Shown one piece after another: positions 2,591 to 36,448 of a stretch of 37,825 nucleotides of DNA. The stretch comes from an uncultured Christensenellaceae bacterium (GTDB taxonomy: Bacteria > Bacillota > Clostridia > Christensenellales > CAG-138), in NCBI GenBank assembly GCA_902475645.1, contig CABSAH010000001.1:1-37825 (forward strand), read 5' to 3'. Every line of letters starts with the position of its first letter. Position 1 is the first letter of the stretch. Position numbers and translations under genes: made by a program. The notes beneath the pieces were generated by a model that saw nothing but the letters and a program-made list of their open reading frames with translations, was not told where the DNA came from and did no database searches.

Positions 2591-3142
2591 ATGGAAGCAA
2601 AAGAAAAGCCCGCTGCGGGAGTTAGTACGCAAGCGAGCCGTGATAAAGCAGGGGAAAACCCCTCTATCGAAAGTATATCATATCGCTTACCTTTTGGTCA
2701 AGCCGTACCCTTTGTGGCGTATGAAAAAGTAGCGGGCGGGGCGAAGGGGCTTGTGAGAATCGGGCAGGAGGTTTGCCCGAAGTTTGACAAGAGCAATTAC
2801 AGCAAGGCCAAGAAGCCGGACGAGACGGGCGTGACACTATATAAGGCGGTTGCCAAGGCGTGGCAGGCGGCATATCCCGAAATAGCCGCCAAACAGCCCC
2901 GCAGACACGAGCCACAGGACAGGCCGTGCAAAATCACGCTGAGGGTATCAAAAGACCTGTATGGGCGGTTGCAACAAGACCAGAGGGGACGCACGATGCA
3001 GAACACAATCATGGAAATGATTATGGACTGCGTGATGAATCCGGGCAAAACGCGGACGGAGCTTTGGGCGGAGAATGCAATCTTAAAGGCGGAAATAATT
3101 TCGTTGAAGGCGAGGCTGAATGATGACGATGAAGAAGATTAA
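2591..3142 (+). CDS. Hypothetical protein (183 aa)
   Basis: From ORF 2570-3142. The second ATG at 2591 has the better RBS (GAGGAGGA, 6-nt spacing). Acidic C-terminal tail DDDEED. Confidence 0.55.
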   Translation: MEAKEKPAAGVSTQASRDKAGENPSIESISYRLPFGQAVPFVAYEKVAGGAKGLVRIGQEVCPKFDKSNYSKAKKPDETGVTLYKAVAKAWQAAYPEIAAKQPRRHEPQDRPCKITLRVSKDLYGRLQQDQRGRTMQNTIMEMIMDCVMNPGKTRTELWAENAILKAEIISLKARLNDDDEED

Positions 3143-4052
3143 AACTGCCAATATGTCCCGCGAGGACTGGCTCAATCTGCGTCGGCACAGCATAGGCGGC
3201 TCCGATGCGGCTGCAATAGTGGGGCTTAACGAATATGCCTCCCCCTTCTCCGTGTGGGCGGATAAGCGCGGGCTGACGGAGGACAAGCCCGACAATGAGG
3301 CCATGCGGCAGGGGCGCGACCTTGAGGAATATGTGGCGCAGCGGTTTTGCGCTGAGACGGGCAAGCGCGTTAAGAGGTGCAACTACACGCTGTATAACAC
3401 GCTGTATCCGTTCGCCCATGCAAATATTGACCGTAGTATCGTGGGAGAGAATGCGGGGCTTGAATGCAAAACAACTTCCGCTTTGAACATGCGGAAGTTC
3501 AAAAACGGCGAGTTCCCCGCAAATTACTATGTACAATGCATGCATTATATGGCCGTCACGGGCATGGATAAATGGTACTTGGCCGTGCTTGTGCTTAACA
3601 AGGCTTTCATGGTTTTCGAGATAGAGCGGGACGAGGGCGAGATTGCGGCGCTTATGGCCGCCGAGGAGGAATTCTGGGCGCATGTGAATGCGGGCGTTCC
3701 GCCCGCACCTGACGGCAGCAAGGCCACCACCGACGTTATAACCAAACTATACGCGGAAGCATATACGGACGATGTTGTCAATTTGGCTGACTGTATGCAA
3801 AATTTCTATGAGCTGAAAGCAATACAGGAGCAAATGAAAACGCTGGAGAGCCGAAAGAACGAGCTGCAAAACGTTATTAAAACGCACATGGGAGCCTCAG
3901 AGCGCGGAGAGTGCGGCGACTTCACCGTTACATGGAAGAATCAGAGGCGCACAAGCTATGATATGGGACGCTTAACGGCTGACTACCCCGACATAGACTT
4001 AGCAGGGTATGCGCGCACTACTCAAACGCGCGTTTTCAAAATAAGCATATAA
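3120..4052 (+). CDS. YqaJ-like viral recombinase-domain exonuclease (PD-(D/E)XK, lambda Exo-like)
   Basis: N-terminal signature REDWLNLRRHSIGGSDAAAIVGLNEYASPFSVWADKRG and the later ECKT motif, both typical of the YqaJ family. Immediately precedes RecT. Confidence 0.85.
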   Translation: MMTMKKIKTANMSREDWLNLRRHSIGGSDAAAIVGLNEYASPFSVWADKRGLTEDKPDNEAMRQGRDLEEYVAQRFCAETGKRVKRCNYTLYNTLYPFAHANIDRSIVGENAGLECKTTSALNMRKFKNGEFPANYYVQCMHYMAVTGMDKWYLAVLVLNKAFMVFEIERDEGEIAALMAAEEEFWAHVNAGVPPAPDGSKATTDVITKLYAEAYTDDVVNLADCMQNFYELKAIQEQMKTLESRKNELQNVIKTHMGASERGECGDFTVTWKNQRRTSYDMGRLTADYPDIDLAGYARTTQTRVFKISI

Positions 4053-4067
4053 GGAGAGAAAAAGAAG

Positions 4068-4928
4068 ATGGAAGCAAACAAAATCCAGAAGGCTACGGCC
4101 ACGGCAGCACCCGCCGCAAAAGCATCACAGACAGTTAATCAGCTAATGAACAGCATACTTGACGGAGAGGGTATGCGAAAGCGGTTTAATGACCTGCTCG
4201 GCAAACGCGCGCCGCAATTCATAAGCAGTGTTGTATCTATGGTTAATGCCGATAAGACAATGCAGATGGCCTTTTACGAAAGCCCGATGACCGTAATACA
4301 GGCCGCACTAAAGGCCGCGACCTTTGACCTACCTATAGACCAAAACCTTGGCTATGCCTATATAGTCCCGTTCAAAAATTACAAAAAGGATACGGGGAAA
4401 TCTGTGCATGAAGCGACTTTCATACTTGGCTGGAAGGGCATGCACCAGCTTGCACTACGCACGGGCGCTTATAAGACCATTAACGTGGTGGACGTGCGCG
4501 AAGGCGAGCTTGAGAGTTATAACCGCCTTACGGAGGAGGTGAAAATAAACTTTATTGAGGACGAGGAAGAGCGCGAGAGTAAACCCGTTATTGGGTATCT
4601 GGGCTATTATCGTTTGGTGAACGGGGCTGAGAAAACAATTTATATGTCCCTAAAGCAGATAGAGGCGCATGAACTGAAATTCCGCAAAGGGCAATCCATG
4701 GGTAAAGGCTGGCGGGATGACTTTGACGCGATGGCGCGTAAGACTGTATATCGCAAGCTAATCGGCAAATGGGGCGTGATGTCTATAGACTACCGCACCG
4801 TGGGCGAAGGGCAGCAGATAGCGGACGCGCTTGCGGCTGACGCGGAGCAGGAAAAGGCATTGGACAATGCCATAGATATAACGCCGCCCGAAAGCATAGA
4901 CGCAGAGACGGGCGAAATCAAGGAATAA
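4068..4928 (+). CDS. recT: RecT-family single-strand annealing recombinase
   Basis: Motifs SVVSMVNADKTM, GYAYIVPFKN, GWKGMHQLALRTGAYK and RKTVYRKLI match my memory of RecT. Paired with YqaJ upstream. Confidence 0.85.
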   Translation: MEANKIQKATATAAPAAKASQTVNQLMNSILDGEGMRKRFNDLLGKRAPQFISSVVSMVNADKTMQMAFYESPMTVIQAALKAATFDLPIDQNLGYAYIVPFKNYKKDTGKSVHEATFILGWKGMHQLALRTGAYKTINVVDVREGELESYNRLTEEVKINFIEDEEERESKPVIGYLGYYRLVNGAEKTIYMSLKQIEAHELKFRKGQSMGKGWRDDFDAMARKTVYRKLIGKWGVMSIDYRTVGEGQQIADALAADAEQEKALDNAIDITPPESIDAETGEIKE

Positions 4929-28609: not shown

Positions 28610-30175
28610 ATGGCTCAATCAACAGATAAAACATTAAAACAGCTTATAATCAACAAAATGCCGCGAAGCGTGTACAAAGCGAAGGACGCGGCCGGGGAGC
28701 TTGACCCCGAACAGGTGTATCTCCCCGATTCGGCATACGATGACAGCCTCGGCATAACCTCCGCTACCCCCGGTCAAATCGTAAAGGTCAAGACCGTGCA
28801 GGACGGCAAGCCGACCGAGTGGGAAGCGGTGAACGATTACCCCGCAGTGCAAACCCGCTATGGGGTGCGCTTTACCGGAAGCCCCCCGGAGGGGGAGCGC
28901 CTGTATGGTGCCGTGGGGCTAAAGGCAAACGTGGGCGTGGGCGCAGAGCTTGTCGAGAATGATTTTGACTACATCATGCCGTGGGCGGGTATGAAACGCT
29001 GTAATACAAAGCTTGTTAACGGGGAGCGCGTGCCGACATTTTACGAGGGTGAACCGGGCTTTTCAAACACGGCGGCAGACGTTTTTGTGCAAGTGCCACG
29101 CTTTTATTATTTTAGGAGCGATGATGATGCGGAGCATGTCGTTTCGATGTACCCCCTTGCGGGATACCGCCCTCCCGAAAAATTTCGCCGTGCCGATGGG
29201 ACGCTGCGAGACTATGTTTTCCTCCCCGCGTATACGTCAGCGCTGGTGGACGGCGTTCCGGTGAGCCGTAGCGGGCTTTATGCGTATATGGCGTCTTTGA
29301 ATGGCTGGATGAAGCTGCTCTCCGATATGCACGCCGCCGGAAAGCTTGATTCGGATATATGGATTGAAGGCACAAAGGACGAGGACATCGTGCGCATTTT
29401 GTGCGACATCGAATTTGCGACGCGCGACCACCAGACCAAAATGATGGGCGCTTGCCTAATGAGATATGCCGACGACACTGTAGTAGAGGGAGGTGTAAAT
29501 CAATTTACCTTATCGCCGGAAATAGCTGCAAAATATGTCATAGGTCAGGCGATTGCCATTGGCACGGCTGATAAAGGTCAGCAGATTGCAATGAACGCCA
29601 CAATTACGAGCATAGACGCCGGCGTCATTACTTTCGAGCCTTCGGACGCTGATGTGACGGTAGAAGCGGGGCATTTCGTTTCTTCAATGCCGTGGAAATC
29701 AGGAGCTTGCGACGGTGTTAAGGCTTCGTCCGGCTCACCCATTTCAAATTCAAACGGCATATATCCGTGTAAATACAGGGGCATTGAAAACCCGTGGGGC
29801 AACCAATTCCGTTGGCGCTGGGACGTTCTTGTGAATGACTATGTGCCTTCGGTCTTACTCGACCCCACGAAATATGCGGATGGTAGGCTGACAGAGGACT
29901 ATCACGCGCTTGCTTACACTATACCCACAACGGCCGGTTATGCAAAAGAAATGGGCTATGACCCAGAATTTCCGTTTGTCCGCATAACAAAAGAGCTGGG
30001 TGGCACATGGAACTCGTTTTTCGCGGATTATAATTGGGTCAACGCTGGCTTGCGGGCGCTTCTTGTCGGGGGTGGCGTGAACGGCGGTCGTGGCGCTGGG
30101 TTGCGGTACTGCAGCGTGGCTGGCGCGCCGTCTAGCGCGAACTGGAGCATCGGCGCGGCTCTTTCTCCCGCGTAA
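28610..30175 (+). CDS. Tail fibre / receptor-binding protein, the DGR target protein with a C-terminal variable region
   Basis: 521 aa. The N-terminus KQLIINKMPRSVYKAKDAAGELDPEQVYLPDS is typical of fibre anchors. The last ~40 codons are the VR copy of a VR/TR pair, with a lectin-like ...GGGVNGGRGAGLRYCSVAGAPSSANWSIGAALS end. Confidence 0.85.
   Translation: MAQSTDKTLKQLIINKMPRSVYKAKDAAGELDPEQVYLPDSAYDDSLGITSATPGQIVKVKTVQDGKPTEWEAVNDYPAVQTRYGVRFTGSPPEGERLYGAVGLKANVGVGAELVENDFDYIMPWAGMKRCNTKLVNGERVPTFYEGEPGFSNTAADVFVQVPRFYYFRSDDDAEHVVSMYPLAGYRPPEKFRRADGTLRDYVFLPAYTSALVDGVPVSRSGLYAYMASLNGWMKLLSDMHAAGKLDSDIWIEGTKDEDIVRILCDIEFATRDHQTKMMGACLMRYADDTVVEGGVNQFTLSPEIAAKYVIGQAIAIGTADKGQQIAMNATITSIDAGVITFEPSDADVTVEAGHFVSSMPWKSGACDGVKASSGSPISNSNGIYPCKYRGIENPWGNQFRWRWDVLVNDYVPSVLLDPTKYADGRLTEDYHALAYTIPTTAGYAKEMGYDPEFPFVRITKELGGTWNSFFADYNWVNAGLRALLVGGGVNGGRGAGLRYCSVAGAPSSANWSIGAALSPA
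30048..30166 (+). repeat. DGR variable repeat (VR)
   Basis: Gap-free 119-nt alignment to 30255-30373 at an offset of 207 nt. There are 16 mismatches, all opposite adenines in the other copy. Confidence 0.9.
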
Positions 30176-30214
30176 GCGGGAACTGGTAAGGGGGTACGGG
30201 GGCGAAAGCCCCCG
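30167..30214 (+). promoter_or_regulatory. Two GNRA-loop hairpins directly 3' of VR (candidate DGR target-recognition element)
   Basis: CCCGC-GTAA-GCGGG at 30167-30180, where the loop contains the target stop codon. CGGGGGC-GAAA-GCCCCCG at 30197-30214. Confidence 0.55.
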
Positions 30215-30254
30215 ATTCTTATAGATTCGGATTGGACGCGGGGCGTCGGTGGGT

Positions 30255-30373
30255 GCTTGCGGGCGCTTCATGTCGGAGGTAACGTGAACAACGGTCGTAA
30301 CGCTGGGTTGCGGTACTGCAACGTGAATAACGCGCCGTCTAACGCGAACTGGAACATCGGCGCGGCACTTTCT
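30255..30373 (+). repeat. DGR template repeat (TR), non-coding template RNA
   Basis: Rich in AAC/AAT codons. 16 of its 25 adenines differ in VR, and no other base differs. Lies between the target gene and the RT. Confidence 0.9.
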
Positions 30374-30514
30374 TGGTTTTGTTGGATTTCGCGTCCTCTC
30401 CCGTGCCACAGCGCCCGTAGGGGCGGCGGGCAAAAGCCCGTGCAGAAATAGACCGTTCCAGACGGGGTTAGTAACGCAAGTGAAACCCCTGTAGGTCAAA
30501 AGAAAGATGATTGG

Positions 30515-31612
30515 ATGAAACGTTATAAGGGTAAAGACATGACCGACCGTGACTTGATTCGGTTGGCTATAATGAACGCCGCAAAGCGAAAGAAAAACCG
30601 CGCCGAAGTGAAGCGGGTGCTTGCGGATATCGAAAGCCACATTACCATAATTCAACATATAATCGTTGAAGAAACGTATAAGCCCGCACCATACAGAGTT
30701 TTTGAAGTAGTTGACGGCGTAAGCGGGAAACGCCGCACCGTGAGCTGTTCGAGATTCTTTCCAGACCAAGTGCTTCATTGGCTGGTGATTCTGTCCGCGC
30801 AAGACATTTTTATGCACGGGATGTACGAATTTGTGTGTGGGAGCGTCCCGAATCGCGGCATTCATTACGGACGAAAGTATGTCAAGAAATGGATAGAAAC
30901 AGACCGGAAAAATATAAAATACTGTGCAAAGCTGGATATAACCAAATTTTACCCATCGATAAGCCATGATGCTTTGAAAGCATCCTTACAGCGAAAAATC
31001 AAAGACCGCAAATTGCTGTGGCTGTTTGACGTGATTATTGACAGCACGGAAAGCGGGTTGCCGATTGGGAATTATACATCACAGTGGCTTGCAAATTTCC
31101 TTCTCCAAGATTTAGACCATAGAATCAAAGAAGAAATGCATATCGCGCATTATATGAGGTACATGGATGATATGGTTTTGCTTGGTGCTAACAAGAAAAG
31201 GTTGCACGCGGCAATAAACGAAATTGCGGCGGCACTTGCACCTTTGGGCTTGACGCTGAACAAAAATTGGCAAGTTTTTCGCGTTGATTATATTGACAGA
31301 AACGGCAAGCGCCGTGGGCGTGATATTGATTTTATGGGATTCCGATTTTTCCGCAATAAAATCATAATGCGAAAAAGGATATCGCTTCGGGCACGGCGGC
31401 TGGCGGCGCGTATATCAAAGTCAGAATGTGTCACCTTTAAGCAAGCTGCGGCTATACTTTCGTATATGGGATGGCTTAAGTATTCTGATTCTTTTGGATT
31501 TTATGAAAAGCACATAAAACCAAAAATCAATATATCAAAGTTAAAGGAGGTAGTAAGGAGTGAAAACAGAAAGCGCAAGCAGGCAACCGAAGTATATACT
31601 CGAACCGCTTGA
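30515..31612 (+). CDS. DGR reverse transcriptase
   Basis: RT motifs AKLDITKFYPSI, LPIGNYTSQWLANFLL (the [LIV]GxxxSQ DGR signature), YMRYMDDMVLLG (YxDD) and DFMGFRF. 365 aa. Visibly more AT-rich than its neighbours. Confidence 0.9.
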   Translation: MKRYKGKDMTDRDLIRLAIMNAAKRKKNRAEVKRVLADIESHITIIQHIIVEETYKPAPYRVFEVVDGVSGKRRTVSCSRFFPDQVLHWLVILSAQDIFMHGMYEFVCGSVPNRGIHYGRKYVKKWIETDRKNIKYCAKLDITKFYPSISHDALKASLQRKIKDRKLLWLFDVIIDSTESGLPIGNYTSQWLANFLLQDLDHRIKEEMHIAHYMRYMDDMVLLGANKKRLHAAINEIAAALAPLGLTLNKNWQVFRVDYIDRNGKRRGRDIDFMGFRFFRNKIIMRKRISLRARRLAARISKSECVTFKQAAAILSYMGWLKYSDSFGFYEKHIKPKINISKLKEVVRSENRKRKQATEVYTRTA

Positions 31613-34463: not shown

Positions 34464-35033
34464 TTATGCCTCGTCAATTCTGCGCGCCGCCTCAGCTCCA
34501 AGGCGGTCTTTATAGTCCTCATAGCCCCAGTATACTTCATATGGGAATTCACTCCGCTCAAATATAACAGCTTCAGGATGCCTTTCCCGATATCTCGATG
34601 TAGGGCTGGTATTGCTGGGGAATATCCAACCTGGGTTACAGTACCATTCCTCAACCGCCGCATAATAATGGAACCGGAAGTCGGGTTCTACCACATCATC
34701 CTCCTCTCGCTCTAAGACATAATATGTTTTACAAAAAACAGCATGGCACGCGATTAACTCATTGCACTCCATTATTTCTTCAAAGCAGCGTGCATTGGCA
34801 TCTTTACGAAAAGCCACACGAGAGTCAAACTTTATTTTATCGCAATGAGTATGTAGCCCGCAAGCACCTATGTAGTCAGCAGTGCATGTGCGTGGATATA
34901 ACCGCTCAAATTCCGGCAATACATCAATTGGTTTCCACCCTGCCGGAATCTGTTTAACGTCGGTTATAAAGGGTACGTCAGTAGGGCATTCTTCAACTGT
35001 GAGATACACACCAAGGTCATAATATCGTTCCAT
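34464..35033 (-). CDS. Hypothetical Cys/His-rich acidic protein (189 aa), cargo gene 1
   Basis: RBS AAGGAG 7 nt upstream. Driven by consensus promoter copy A. I recognise no family. Confidence 0.65.
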   Translation of the reverse strand: MERYYDLGVYLTVEECPTDVPFITDVKQIPAGWKPIDVLPEFERLYPRTCTADYIGACGLHTHCDKIKFDSRVAFRKDANARCFEEIMECNELIACHAVFCKTYYVLEREEDDVVEPDFRFHYYAAVEEWYCNPGWIFPSNTSPTSRYRERHPEAVIFERSEFPYEVYWGYEDYKDRLGAEAARRIDEA

Positions 35034-35079
35034 TTTCTAACTCCTTTCGGGGTTTTACCCCTTGCTTTATCATGGCTCT

Positions 35080-35108
35080 ATTATATACTATTCCGGAATA
35101 GATGTCAA
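35080..35108 (-). promoter_or_regulatory. Consensus promoter copy A: TTGACA-N17-TATAAT with the palindrome CTATTCCGGAATAG in the spacer
   Basis: On the minus strand, -35 is at 35108-35103 and -10 at 35085-35080. The operator-like palindrome is at 35088-35101. An AT-rich 10-bp-stem palindrome lies at 35112-35135 just upstream. Confidence 0.7.
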
Positions 35109-35136
35109 TAGTTTTTCTAAACTTTTTTAGAAAAAA

Positions 35137-35328
35137 TTATTCCCCGCGCTGCATGGCATTGTCGATGATGCGGTTTATAAACTCGGTCATGCTCTCCCCC
35201 TTTTTTGCCGCATATTCTTTTATGAGCTGTTTTTTGCCCTGCGGCACAAATACATCGATTCTATCCATAGATGCGCGGTAAGCATCATAATATTTTTTGT
35301 TGCTTTTGTACTTGGCGTTTTTCTCCAT
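35137..35328 (-). CDS. Ribbon-helix-helix (Arc/CopG-like) DNA-binding protein
   Basis: RIDVFVPQGKKQLIKEYAAKKGESMTEFINRIIDNAM fits a beta-strand, helix, helix RHH layout. 63 aa. Confidence 0.7.
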   Translation of the reverse strand: MEKNAKYKSNKKYYDAYRASMDRIDVFVPQGKKQLIKEYAAKKGESMTEFINRIIDNAMQRGE

Positions 35329-35335
35329 CTTGTGC

Positions 35336-35365
35336 TTGACAATCCTCGCTTTCGTGTGATAGTAT
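35336..35365 (+). promoter_or_regulatory. Candidate promoter for the mini-CRISPR array (TTGACA-N18-TAGTAT with a TG extended -10)
   Basis: TTGACA at 35336-35341, TG at 35357-35358 and TAGTAT at 35360-35365. The predicted transcription start is around 35372, at the left arm of the flanking inverted repeat. Confidence 0.5.
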
Positions 35366-35384
35366 AGGTCAAGAAGTAATTCCC

Positions 35385-35474
35385 GTGTTCCCCGCGTAAG
35401 CGGGGGTGACTCTTGAGCTCATCGTAGAGGCGGTCAAAGAATACTGTGTTCCCCGCGTAAGCGGGGGTGGCCTA
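35385..35474 (+). CRISPR. Cas-less mini-CRISPR array: two type I-E-like 29-nt repeats and one 32-nt spacer
   Basis: GTGTTCCCCGCGTAAGCGGGGGTG is identical at 35385 and 35446, a 61-nt period equal to 29+32. The stem CCCCGC/GCGGGG with a 4-nt loop and a GTGA... 3' handle resembles type I-E repeats (compare E. coli GTGTTCCCCGCGCCAGCGGGGATAAACCG). The spacer is TGAGCTCATCGTAGAGGCGGTCAAAGAATACT. The 3' end of repeat 2 is degenerate. Confidence 0.7.
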
Positions 35475-35506
35475 GACTAAAGCTAATGCTCTGTCATGGC
35501 AATTTG

Positions 35507-35526
35507 GGGAATTACTTCTTTTTTTT
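35507..35526 (+). terminator. Right arm of the 14-bp inverted repeat plus a T-tract closing the mini-array transcript
   Basis: GGGAATTACTTCTT (35507-35520) is the reverse complement of AAGAAGTAATTCCC (35371-35384). It runs straight into further Ts to 35526. Confidence 0.45.
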
Positions 35527-35530
35527 GTAC

Positions 35531-36331
35531 TTAGTCCTGGTCGAACCGGAATTTCAGCCATCCCTCGGGGATGCCGTTCTCGCTTGCTTGGCTCAGTATC
35601 TCGGCCTTTAGTTCGTCGTAAGCTTCACGGCTTTCGGGAGCCTTCTTTTTGCTCTTGACCTCGGCGTATAGCTCGATGTCGTTTATCTCGACCATCATCC
35701 AGTCTACACCGTGCGTCCCGTATCGGCTTTCGCCGGATTGATATTCCACCTCATACGGCTCACAAAAATTACACACGCAGTTGCCTTCCTTGTCGTCCCA
35801 CATTTCTCGGTAGAGGTAAAAATATTTCCCACAAACAGCACATTTGCAGTAGCATGCTGCTCGGGCGTGGTCAGCATTGAAAAATATCTTGCCGTCCGCT
35901 GCCGTAATCATTCCATCTTCTTCCCCTGCGTGAATCTCTACGCCCCAAGTTTCCGCTTTCTTTATGGTTTCTTCATCGAAGCAGATAGGGTCGAATCTGG
36001 CTTTTTTCTTGAGAAATTCCGCTAATGCTACATAAAAGCAGGTGCCGAGGTCGCCGTATTCGCCGCAATAATCGCCACAATTTAACCCTAACTCTTCGCA
36101 CAAATCTTCGTACATATCATCGTCCCCGCCTTCATCGTAATTAACGATTGCGTCAAGCAGCTCTTCGGCTTCGGGATATTTTATACGTACAAAATCGTCC
36201 GCAGAAGCCTCCTCGTCGCCATACCATTCAGCTTCCAGTAGCTTATCGAGTATGTAATGCGGAATCAAACCTGCGCCGTACTTTTCGCGCGCCTTCGTGC
36301 CTTCGATTGCCCTGTAATAATAGTTCATCAT
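35531..36331 (-). CDS. Hypothetical highly acidic protein with a C-terminal Cys cluster (266 aa), cargo gene 2
   Basis: RBS AAAGGAG. D/E-rich N-terminal half (DEGGDDDMYEDLCEELG). CYCKCAVCGKYF...CVCNFCEPYE zinc-ribbon-like cluster. Driven by promoter copy B. Confidence 0.7.
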   Translation of the reverse strand: MMNYYYRAIEGTKAREKYGAGLIPHYILDKLLEAEWYGDEEASADDFVRIKYPEAEELLDAIVNYDEGGDDDMYEDLCEELGLNCGDYCGEYGDLGTCFYVALAEFLKKKARFDPICFDEETIKKAETWGVEIHAGEEDGMITAADGKIFFNADHARAACYCKCAVCGKYFYLYREMWDDKEGNCVCNFCEPYEVEYQSGESRYGTHGVDWMMVEINDIELYAEVKSKKKAPESREAYDELKAEILSQASENGIPEGWLKFRFDQD

Positions 36332-36376
36332 TTCTAACTCCTTTCGGGCTTTGCCCTTGCTTTACTTGATGGTCTT

Positions 36377-36405
36377 ATTATATACTATTCCGGAATAGTT
36401 GTCAA
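36377..36405 (-). promoter_or_regulatory. Consensus promoter copy B: TTGACA-N17-TATAAT with the palindrome CTATTCCGGAATAG in the spacer
   Basis: On the minus strand, -35 is at 36405-36400 and -10 at 36382-36377. The palindrome is at 36385-36398 and the AT-rich palindrome at 36409-36432. It is part of a ~108-bp direct repeat with 35031-35139. Confidence 0.7.
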
Positions 36406-36448
36406 GGGTTTTTCTAAACTTTTTTAGAAAAAATTTATGCCCGTAAAT

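Follow-up and report, generated by a model that had tools for sequence, protein, structure and literature searches.

A phage small RNA gene that probably acts as a type I-E repeat decoy and carries one repeat-spacer unit

Viral mini-CRISPR arrays were reportedly described by Faure et al. in 2019. Such arrays, in which a virus that lacks cas genes carries one spacer flanked by two host-type repeats, are also documented by Medvedeva et al. (2019; PMC6858448) and in a review (PMC11656645), and their spacers mostly match related viruses. RNA anti-CRISPRs (Racrs), by comparison, derive from solitary repeat units (SRUs) and include RacrIE1/IE2, RacrIF1 and RacrIC1; the sections of the source that deal with them describe racr genes as clustering with acr genes (RacrIC1 adjoins AcrIC5), place the active part of RacrIF1 in a long 5′ leader which nucleates a Cas7 filament, and report that RacrIF1 furnished with an added repeat and spacer gives rise to a functional CRISPR RNA (crRNA) (Camara-Wilpert et al., 2023; PMC10651486). 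Finally, Cracr arrays of prophages comprise a I-E repeat-like unit followed by a spacer-like sequence, and have been proposed to subvert Cascade (Liu et al., bioRxiv 10.1101/2024.10.29.618823). Here we analyse a 37,825-nt stretch of DNA (contig CABSAH010000001.1, referred to as the window) which contains, near its right end, a predicted small RNA (sRNA) gene with two copies of a type I-E repeat. We favour the reading, with a probability of roughly 60%, that this sRNA gene of a temperate gut phage mimics the type I-E repeat of its host in the manner of a Racr and, in addition, carries one captured canonical repeat-spacer unit.

The window holds exactly two copies of the 24-mer GTGTTCCCCGCGTAAGCGGGGGTG, at 35385-35408 and 35446-35469 of the + strand and 61 nt apart from start to start, just as an earlier analysis of the letters alone (the sequence-only reading) had stated. 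Even when three mismatches were allowed, the window showed no further copy, and 100 dinucleotide-preserving shuffles gave 0 matches to the repeat. When the 18-nt repeat core was scanned over one genome per species, at least 119 loci were recovered (these and other loci are cited below by their L numbers), and among the matches listed, multi-copy arrays built from the full 24-mer stand in L084 (18 copies), in L092 from Lachnoanaerobaculum saburreum (14), in L114 from Bombilactobacillus apium (19) and in L113. The attribution of the 61-nt period to type I-E geometry is borne out by these arrays, in which 46 of 48 intervals have that length (16/17 in L084, 13/13 in L092 and 17/18 in L114); the spacer of the window is accordingly of canonical length for a repeat family with this period. 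In these arrays the repeat continues as GATCC[T/C] or GATTC[T/C]. Genes for Cas6e (E = 6e-19), Cas1e (E = 2.5e-105) and Cas2e-DnaQ stand beside the L092 array, and the I-E system of Lachnoanaerobaculum saburreum DSM 3986 uses the repeat GTGTTCCCCGCGTAAGCGGGGGTGATCC; in a Christensenellaceae metagenome-assembled genome (L032), genes for Cas2e, Cas6e and Cas5e adjoin CTTTTCCCCGCGTAAGCGGGGGTGATCC, a repeat with the same 21-nt core. On these sequence matches the 24-mer of the window is a genuine type I-E repeat. The outcome that the sequence-only reading had named as fatal to its proposal, a generic hairpin dispersed through the host genome, is rejected because the 24-mer is identical to authentic I-E repeats adjoining cas6e, cas1e and cas2e. 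The exact 24-mer had no match in IMG/VR, and the SRU tables of the Racr paper, in the sections on which we draw, give the 18-nt core as GAGTTCCCCGCGTAAGCGGGGATGAACCGA and not in the ...GGGGGTG form of the window family (PMC10651486). A search of the window against Rfam returned no family at gathering score; two weak minus-strand matches to CRISPR-DR28 (E = 0.39 and 4.5) were rejected because the promoter and terminator described below define the + strand.

Each repeat copy is predicted to fold into four unpaired nucleotides, a 7-bp stem (a U-G pair plus CCCCGC/GCGGGG) and a GUAA loop, in agreement with the I-E hairpin proposed from sequence, whose stem is extended here by the U-G pair. The 3′ parts of the two repeats are less regular. 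The sequence-only reading considered the handle degenerate in repeat 2, and this holds (GTGGCCT, three mismatches to the consensus GTGATCC[T/C] of the arrays compared), but the handle of repeat 1 also departs from the consensus (GTGACTC, two mismatches). The GTGACTC handle is also present in the viral repeat units L128, L133 and L141, and may be that of an unsampled host clade.

The sequence-only reading overlooked a perfect 14-bp inverted repeat (35371-35384 and 35507-35520) and the T-run behind it, which together bracket both repeats (Table 1). Because this stem and T-run enclose the repeats, we regard the element as a discrete sRNA gene of about 150 nt. A promoter of the form TTGACA-N18-TAGTAT with TG had already been proposed to point into the array, and our promoter scan (10/12 matches plus TG) supports it; the start of transcription is predicted at about 35371-35372, at the first arm of the closing stem. 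In the predicted fold (-68.3 kcal/mol, z = -5.3 against shuffles) the RNA, about 150 nt long, has both of its ends paired and displays two I-E hairpins and a tail hairpin, with a U-run at its end; the 5′ arm is paired in both the minimum free energy and the centroid folds. Between repeat 2 and the 3′ arm lie an 8-nt handle and exactly 32 nt, and IMG/VR contained no match to this tail (35475-35506, Tail A), whether in the form of a protospacer or of an element at another site. Likeness of the 5′ arm to a CRISPR leader was also considered and rejected: host leaders end in ...TTTTTAGT, unlike the arm, and canonical leader-directed acquisition is therefore not supported.

Table 1. Coordinates of the sRNA gene and of the neighbouring features in the window
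Feature	Position	Strand	Description
Sigma-70-type promoter	35336-35365	+	-35 TTGACA at 35336-35341, 18-nt spacer, extended -10 TGaTAGTAT (-10 at 35360-35365)
5′ arm of closing stem	35371-35384	+	AAGAAGTAATTCCC; abuts repeat 1; 100% complementary to 35507-35520
Repeat 1 (28 nt)	35385-35412	+	GTGTTCCCCGCGTAAGCGGGGGTG + ACTC; Cas6e-type hairpin
Spacer	35413-35445	+	33 nt including a T at the 29th position; the 32 nt from 35414 are TGAGCTCATCGTAGAGGCGGTCAAAGAATACT
Repeat 2 (28 nt)	35446-35473	+	GTGTTCCCCGCGTAAGCGGGGGTG + GCCT; counterpart of the single repeat of the relatives
Tail	35474-35506	+	end of handle plus exactly 32 nt (35475-35506); own hairpin, which includes handle bases
3′ arm and T-run	35507-35526	+	GGGAATTACTTCTT (35507-35520), then T-run; resembles an intrinsic terminator
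189-aa protein gene	34464-35033	-	downstream of the second promoter/operator cassette
Second promoter/operator cassette	35080-35108	-	upstream of the 189-aa gene; palindrome at 35088-35101; promoter match 12/12
63-aa ribbon-helix-helix protein gene	35137-35328	-	candidate Aca-like regulator; sRNA gene directly upstream, on the opposite strand
266-aa protein gene	35531-36331	-	convergent with the sRNA gene; first gene of a putative operon
Promoter/operator cassette	36377-36405	-	upstream of the 266-aa gene; TTGACA, palindrome CTATTCCGGAATAG (36385-36398), TATAAT

Ten distinct single-repeat relatives were identified in other gut phages (L122, L123, L132, L157, L166, L167, L170, L173, L174 and L177), giving eleven distinct RNAs with that of the window. 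L122 and L123 were reached through homologues of the 266-aa protein encoded next to the sRNA gene, L132 (= L144) came from IMG/VR, L157 is GenBank phage MT835524.1, and L166, L167, L170, L173, L174 and L177 were found through homologues of the 227-aa neighbour in L157; a family-specific pattern run against Joint Genome Institute metagenomes matched L144 (= L132) and one chance sequence, and nothing else. All share the order promoter, 5′ arm, I-E repeat hairpin, handle, tail hairpin, 3′ arm and U-run. In L122 and L123 the series of promoter, arm, one repeat, tail, arm and T-run stands directly past the gene for the 266-aa homologue, on the opposite strand. Promoter and terminator are predicted, and conserved, across the family members, with the TTGAC of the -35 element and the -10 element keeping the same distance from the 5′ arm. 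Six RNAs (class 1) carry [A/G]TGTTCCCCGCGTAAGCGGGGGTG and are identical to I-E repeats over 23-24 nt, unpaired bases included, and the other five (class 2) carry another I-E-type hairpin, TCCCCACnnnnGTGGGGGTGAACCG.

All eleven RNAs are predicted to fold into a three-way junction in which the repeat hairpin and a tail hairpin, the latter taking in handle bases, sit on a closing stem of 11-14 bp. For five class-1 members, RNAalifold gave 13 closing-stem pairs, 8 of them with compensatory double changes and 0 broken, and the repeat hairpin is invariant in this class; class 2 showed the same RNAalifold structure with fewer changes, and a compensatory change was also seen within the tail hairpin between L170 and L123. 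Each relative continues from its handle into a tail of 23-33 nt. The tail of the window is near-identical in L122 and unrelated in sequence in the other relatives, yet it always forms a hairpin. Between the window and L122 the arms are identical as well, while the adjacent proteins are only 49% identical; conservation is much stronger in the RNA than in the protein next to it. The window copy alone (1/11 RNAs) has a second repeat and a spacer, and it aligns to the relatives with a clean 61-nt insertion on the promoter-proximal side. At the other extreme, the reverse strand of L158 (3233-3290) presents an 'empty site' consisting of a promoter (TTGACT...TACTATAAT), a single palindromic arm (AGAAGCGCTTCT) and a T-run; the repeat and tail present in L157 are absent. 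Because this site keeps promoter, arm and T-run without the repeat, the latter is separable cargo.

This last observation bears on whether the gene has anything to do with CRISPR at all. An sRNA gene lying antisense between the genes for the 266-aa and ribbon-helix-helix (RHH) proteins, where convergent transcription is likely, might be an antisense or terminator element which tunes their operon, or the repeat might be a homology patch for integration into arrays, a role that has been proposed for SRUs. We consider such a role extremely improbable given the separable repeat of L158, the identity to a I-E repeat down to the unpaired bases in six RNAs with a second I-E variant in the other five, and the position of the prophage, which sits next to McrBC and AddAB genes and not inside an array.

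The comparison of the spacer with phage, prophage and plasmid databases recommended in the sequence-only reading yielded no protospacer. There was none in the window itself with up to three mismatches; IMG/VR contained neither an exact 30-mer of the spacer nor a match to two codon-wobble-degenerate patterns for its open frames ELIVEAVKEY and VFFDRLYDEL; and blastn against INPHARED phages and PLSDB plasmids reached at best 21-24 of 33 positions, which is chance level. The 119 loci listed likewise held no protospacer, and peptide tblastn against the collected loci found none. The missing target is weak evidence, because the databases are incomplete. It nevertheless counts against the view that the element is a viral mini-CRISPR array first, whose single crRNA turns host Cascade-Cas3 on a competing phage or plasmid (superinfection exclusion) and whose decoy effect is incidental. 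That view is doubtful in our judgement. It would account well for the two repeats at an exact 61-nt period, the canonical 32-33-nt spacer and the element's own promoter, and the prophage state would allow the RNA to be made in lysogens. However, the crRNA would carry the handle GTGACTC in place of the consensus GTGATCC, and as all ten relatives are spacer-less, whatever function the gene has conserved must be independent of a guide. Compared with described mini-arrays, moreover, no viral match was found for the spacer of the window in the databases searched, and the array is enclosed by a closing stem and terminator and has ten homologues without a spacer.

The spacer or tail might instead pair partially with the promoter of host cas genes or of a CRISPR-guarding toxin and so reprogramme Cascade, in the way of a Cracr/crlRNA-type regulator. 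Prophage I-E arrays with two or three pseudo-spacers repress casA (bioRxiv 10.1101/2024.10.29.618823), and the 23-33-nt tails that follow the handle in the relatives could in principle be pseudo-spacers. Three considerations make this quite improbable. In seed-anchored matching against the 119 loci listed and the host flank, the spacer and four tails did no better than shuffled guides, in a test that covered the I-E cas loci among the 119 and not the cas locus of the true host; the spacer, at 32-33 nt, is full length, in contrast to described pseudo-spacers, which measure 21-24 nt and have cas or toxin promoters as their matches, a kind of match that this test did not reveal for the spacer; and the tails, being unrelated in sequence but always hairpins that bury handle bases, point to a structural rather than a guide role.

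Of the two roles proposed in the sequence-only reading, the relatives and the locus described below thus favour an RNA anti-CRISPR for the family, while the search for a protospacer did not lend support to a targeting mini-array. In type I-E systems Cas6e, whose binding to its product is tight, is present in Cascade as a stoichiometric subunit. In our favoured model the ancestral and main function, common to the ten single-repeat relatives, would be to offer Cas6e a hairpin that it binds with high affinity, carried on a scaffold resistant to nucleases. Such a decoy RNA would titrate Cas6e, and possibly the Cascade subunits that bind the handle, away from host pre-crRNA, and type I-E immunity against the phage or prophage would be weakened as a result. 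In the window alone, Cas6e would cut at both hairpins and release one canonical 61-nt crRNA that could be loaded on host Cascade, composed of a 7-8-nt handle, a 32-33-nt spacer and a 21-nt hairpin, with the 3′ part of repeat 1, GTGACTC(T), becoming its 5′ handle; the predicted Cas6e products are a fragment of about 35 nt made up of the 5′ arm and a hairpin, a 61-nt species starting GUGACUCU and a later fragment starting GUGGCCUA. As the most likely source of the extra 61-nt unit we regard a host array, from which short-homology recombination within the 24 nt of identity would have transferred it, perhaps promoted by the YqaJ/RecT proteins of the phage. Capture from a host array fits because the repeat 1 handle GTGACTC is seen elsewhere and repeat 2 keeps the degenerate handle of the family. 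One could suppose instead that a chance recombination with a host array left the repeat-spacer behind as a neutral relic, functionless within a decoy or a decaying gene, and its occurrence in one lineage only, the differing handles (as expected of a crossover inside the repeat) and the encoded YqaJ/RecT would suit this. Yet nothing in the scaffold, the two hairpins or the exact 61-nt register is disrupted, and the sequence is 100% identical in three independent samples (the window and contigs L120 and L121), which leaves a relic very improbable.

The favoured reading, a Racr-type decoy with a captured unit, is closest to the Racrs in several respects. Like them, the window element is a phage-encoded, cas-less copy of a host repeat with its Cas6-binding hairpin intact and a predicted strong promoter of its own, and is a predicted small non-coding RNA in an acr locus, with an AcrIC5 homologue in the syntenic slot of sibling phages. 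It differs in having two repeats and a spacer and in its 5′ flank, a 12-14-nt arm locked in the closing stem; a three-way-junction scaffold with a tail hairpin is not among the features in the Racr description on which we draw (PMC10651486). By analogy, the window could be seen as the natural counterpart of the engineered RacrIF1-repeat-spacer construct, whereas its mode of repeat mimicry looks like a different one from that of RacrIF1. Judged by sequence, the element is Racr-like in its probable working and formally a one-spacer viral mini-array.

Several points weigh against this reading. The decoy proposal rests on sequence and predicted folds. SRUFinder treats a repeat as solitary if there is no second repeat within about 100 bp, which is true of the ten relatives and not of the window copy, so that the latter falls outside the strict SRU definition. 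A spacer of canonical length is no less to be expected of a working crRNA than of a pure decoy, and neither repeat handle has the GTGATCC consensus of the arrays compared. The mechanism of RacrIF1 would be inapplicable: the 5′ part is only 12-14 nt long here and predicted to be base-paired, and a Cas7 filament does not fit because this flank is short and paired. The modelled three-way junction could also hinder the access of Cas6e to its hairpin. As to the host, its assignment to Christensenellales depends on one McrB cluster member, and the known host flank amounts to 8.5 kb. For the prediction of the sequence-only reading that the host carries a matching type I-E system, the comparison reached the level of the clade, where the Christensenellaceae genome L032 has I-E cas genes and the related repeat noted above.

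The neighbourhood of the sRNA gene has the make-up of an anti-CRISPR locus. A duplicated cassette of about 130 bp (36315-36442 and 35020-35144; 85.6% identity by BLAST) contains TTGACA, the palindrome CTATTCCGGAATAG between the -35 and -10 elements, TATAAT, a hairpin in the 5′ untranslated region and a ribosome-binding site. The same cassette occurs in L158, where it drives an AcrIC5-RHH gene pair and a 94-aa gene (3310-3392 and 3838-3915). L158 is one of eight sibling phages (L158-L165) whose loci are syntenic with that of the window, with the same genes on either side (lysis genes and the 145/102-aa genes); all eight encode a 60-aa AcrIC5 homologue (PF22147, E = 3e-23; for example at 3392-3574 in L158), followed by an RHH protein. 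No known acr gene was found within the window itself. Because the siblings' slot holds an AcrIC5 homologue and an RHH protein under the same promoter/operator cassette, the locus is of the acr-aca type, with the roles of AcrIC5 and the RHH protein assigned by homology and synteny. The AcrIC5 homologues in the eight siblings also imply that hosts of this phage group use type I-C CRISPR-Cas.

The 63-aa RHH protein of the window, which is 67% identical to the RHH protein after AcrIC5 in L158, gave weak matches to RHH families in Pfam (RepB-RCR_reg, ParG and RHH_5) and Arc-like matches in PHROG; an HTH_3 protein takes its place in L122. A word-indexed homologue search with it returned only the query, and the nearest RHH representative in a full scan, P0113, had no repeat nearby. 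An Aca of RHH type, Aca14, has been described (bioRxiv 10.64898/2026.07.27.740549), and acr-aca operons of that kind resemble the present locus in that a small RHH gene ends the operon, an inverted repeat lies within the promoter, the operator is repeated at a neighbouring operon, and a known acr family occupies the slot in the siblings. The RHH protein of the window belongs to a Firmicutes phage lineage and is likened to Aca14 by description, with a putative operator. The 266-aa protein has a very acidic N-terminus and a Cys-rich centre; it has only two homologues (49-50% identity), each followed by a repeat sRNA, and its N-terminal ~95 aa recur as stand-alone 94-aa open reading frames (ORFs) in the L157 and L158 loci. 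Neither this nor the 189-aa protein matched anything in Pfam, PHROG or the sequences of the PDB, and both are candidate anti-defence proteins.

In agreement with the sequence-only reading, which had called the array phage-borne, the window is a prophage. It encodes terminase, portal, HK97 capsid, NlpC/P60 endolysin and YqaJ/RecT proteins and a diversity-generating retroelement (DGR), and contig L120, which is 100% identical to it over 12.3 kb, runs past the window end into host genes for McrBC, LigT and AddAB. The statement that the window lacks cas genes also stands: cas families were found neither in the scanned ORFs of the window nor among the annotated genes of L120. The only hint as to the host is one member of the McrB 90% cluster, annotated as Christensenellales, and no spacer of the at least 119 loci listed matches the window phage. 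The YqaJ-like exonuclease and RecT form a phage single-strand-annealing recombination module (3120-4928), and this module could mediate short-homology exchange with host CRISPR arrays. As a separate observation, the DGR is complete (28610-31612). Its variable repeat (30048-30166) lies at the 3′ end of a 521-aa ORF and its template repeat at 30255-30373, with all differences between them at template adenines; the reverse transcriptase (PF00078, phrog_1423) is encoded after them at 30515-31612, next to a Phage_tail_APC gene.

Other forms of repeat mimicry were encountered among the viral sequences. In L128 and L141 (also L126, L127 and L136, and the genome locus L104), one or two I-E hairpins are nested in a closing stem, CAAGGCAC / GTGCCTTG, which is followed by a type I-C crRNA handle, TGGATTGAAAT. 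This structure may be a mimic of a I-C repeat that holds a I-E repeat in its loop, that is, a decoy of dual specificity. A provirus of Lactobacillus selangorensis DSM 13344 (L138 = L016) has a separate one-spacer I-E mini-array, composed of ATATTCCCCGCGTAAGCGGGGGTGATCC, a 33-nt spacer and a degenerate repeat which runs straight into a terminator. Viral contigs L129, L130, L131 and L135 carry mini-arrays of two or three repeats of the Parasutterella-type I-E repeat GAGTTCCCCGCGTAAGCGGGGATGAACC, located behind a leader-like sequence that they share.

A bolder view of the family, which we regard as unlikely, is that the closed-stem repeat RNA is a bifunctional, convertible module. By default it would be a decoy for Cas6e, and through its 24-nt identity to host repeats it could capture repeat-spacer units of the host array with the help of RecT/YqaJ; as a related possibility, its closing stem could tether the cleaved, Cas6e-bound hairpin as a 'permuted crRNA'. 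If the module is convertible, a single gene would suppress the I-E immunity of the host and at the same time turn whatever Cascade is left on a rival element, a switch from decoy to guide that the window would have caught in nature. If a 'permuted crRNA' is formed, the hairpin would remain joined to the handle-plus-tail fragment at the 3′ end of the latter, and a single repeat would trap whole Cascade complexes.

Whichever of these mechanisms applies, Racrs and mini-arrays are known but usually treated apart, and here one homologous gene shows both. What is new is the series from an empty site (L158) through a solitary repeat (ten phages) to a repeat with a spacer (the window); the compact, conserved and closed scaffold, in which both RNA ends are paired around a repeat hairpin and a tail hairpin; and the position of the gene in an AcrIC5/RHH locus of common human-gut phages. 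The analysis also points to the genes of the 266-aa and 189-aa proteins as anti-defence candidates in the poorly studied phages of Clostridia. The scaffold suggests how an RNA decoy might be stabilised and may be a usable model for the design of RNA inhibitors of type I-E systems, and the locus as a whole bears on whether a decoy can become a guide.

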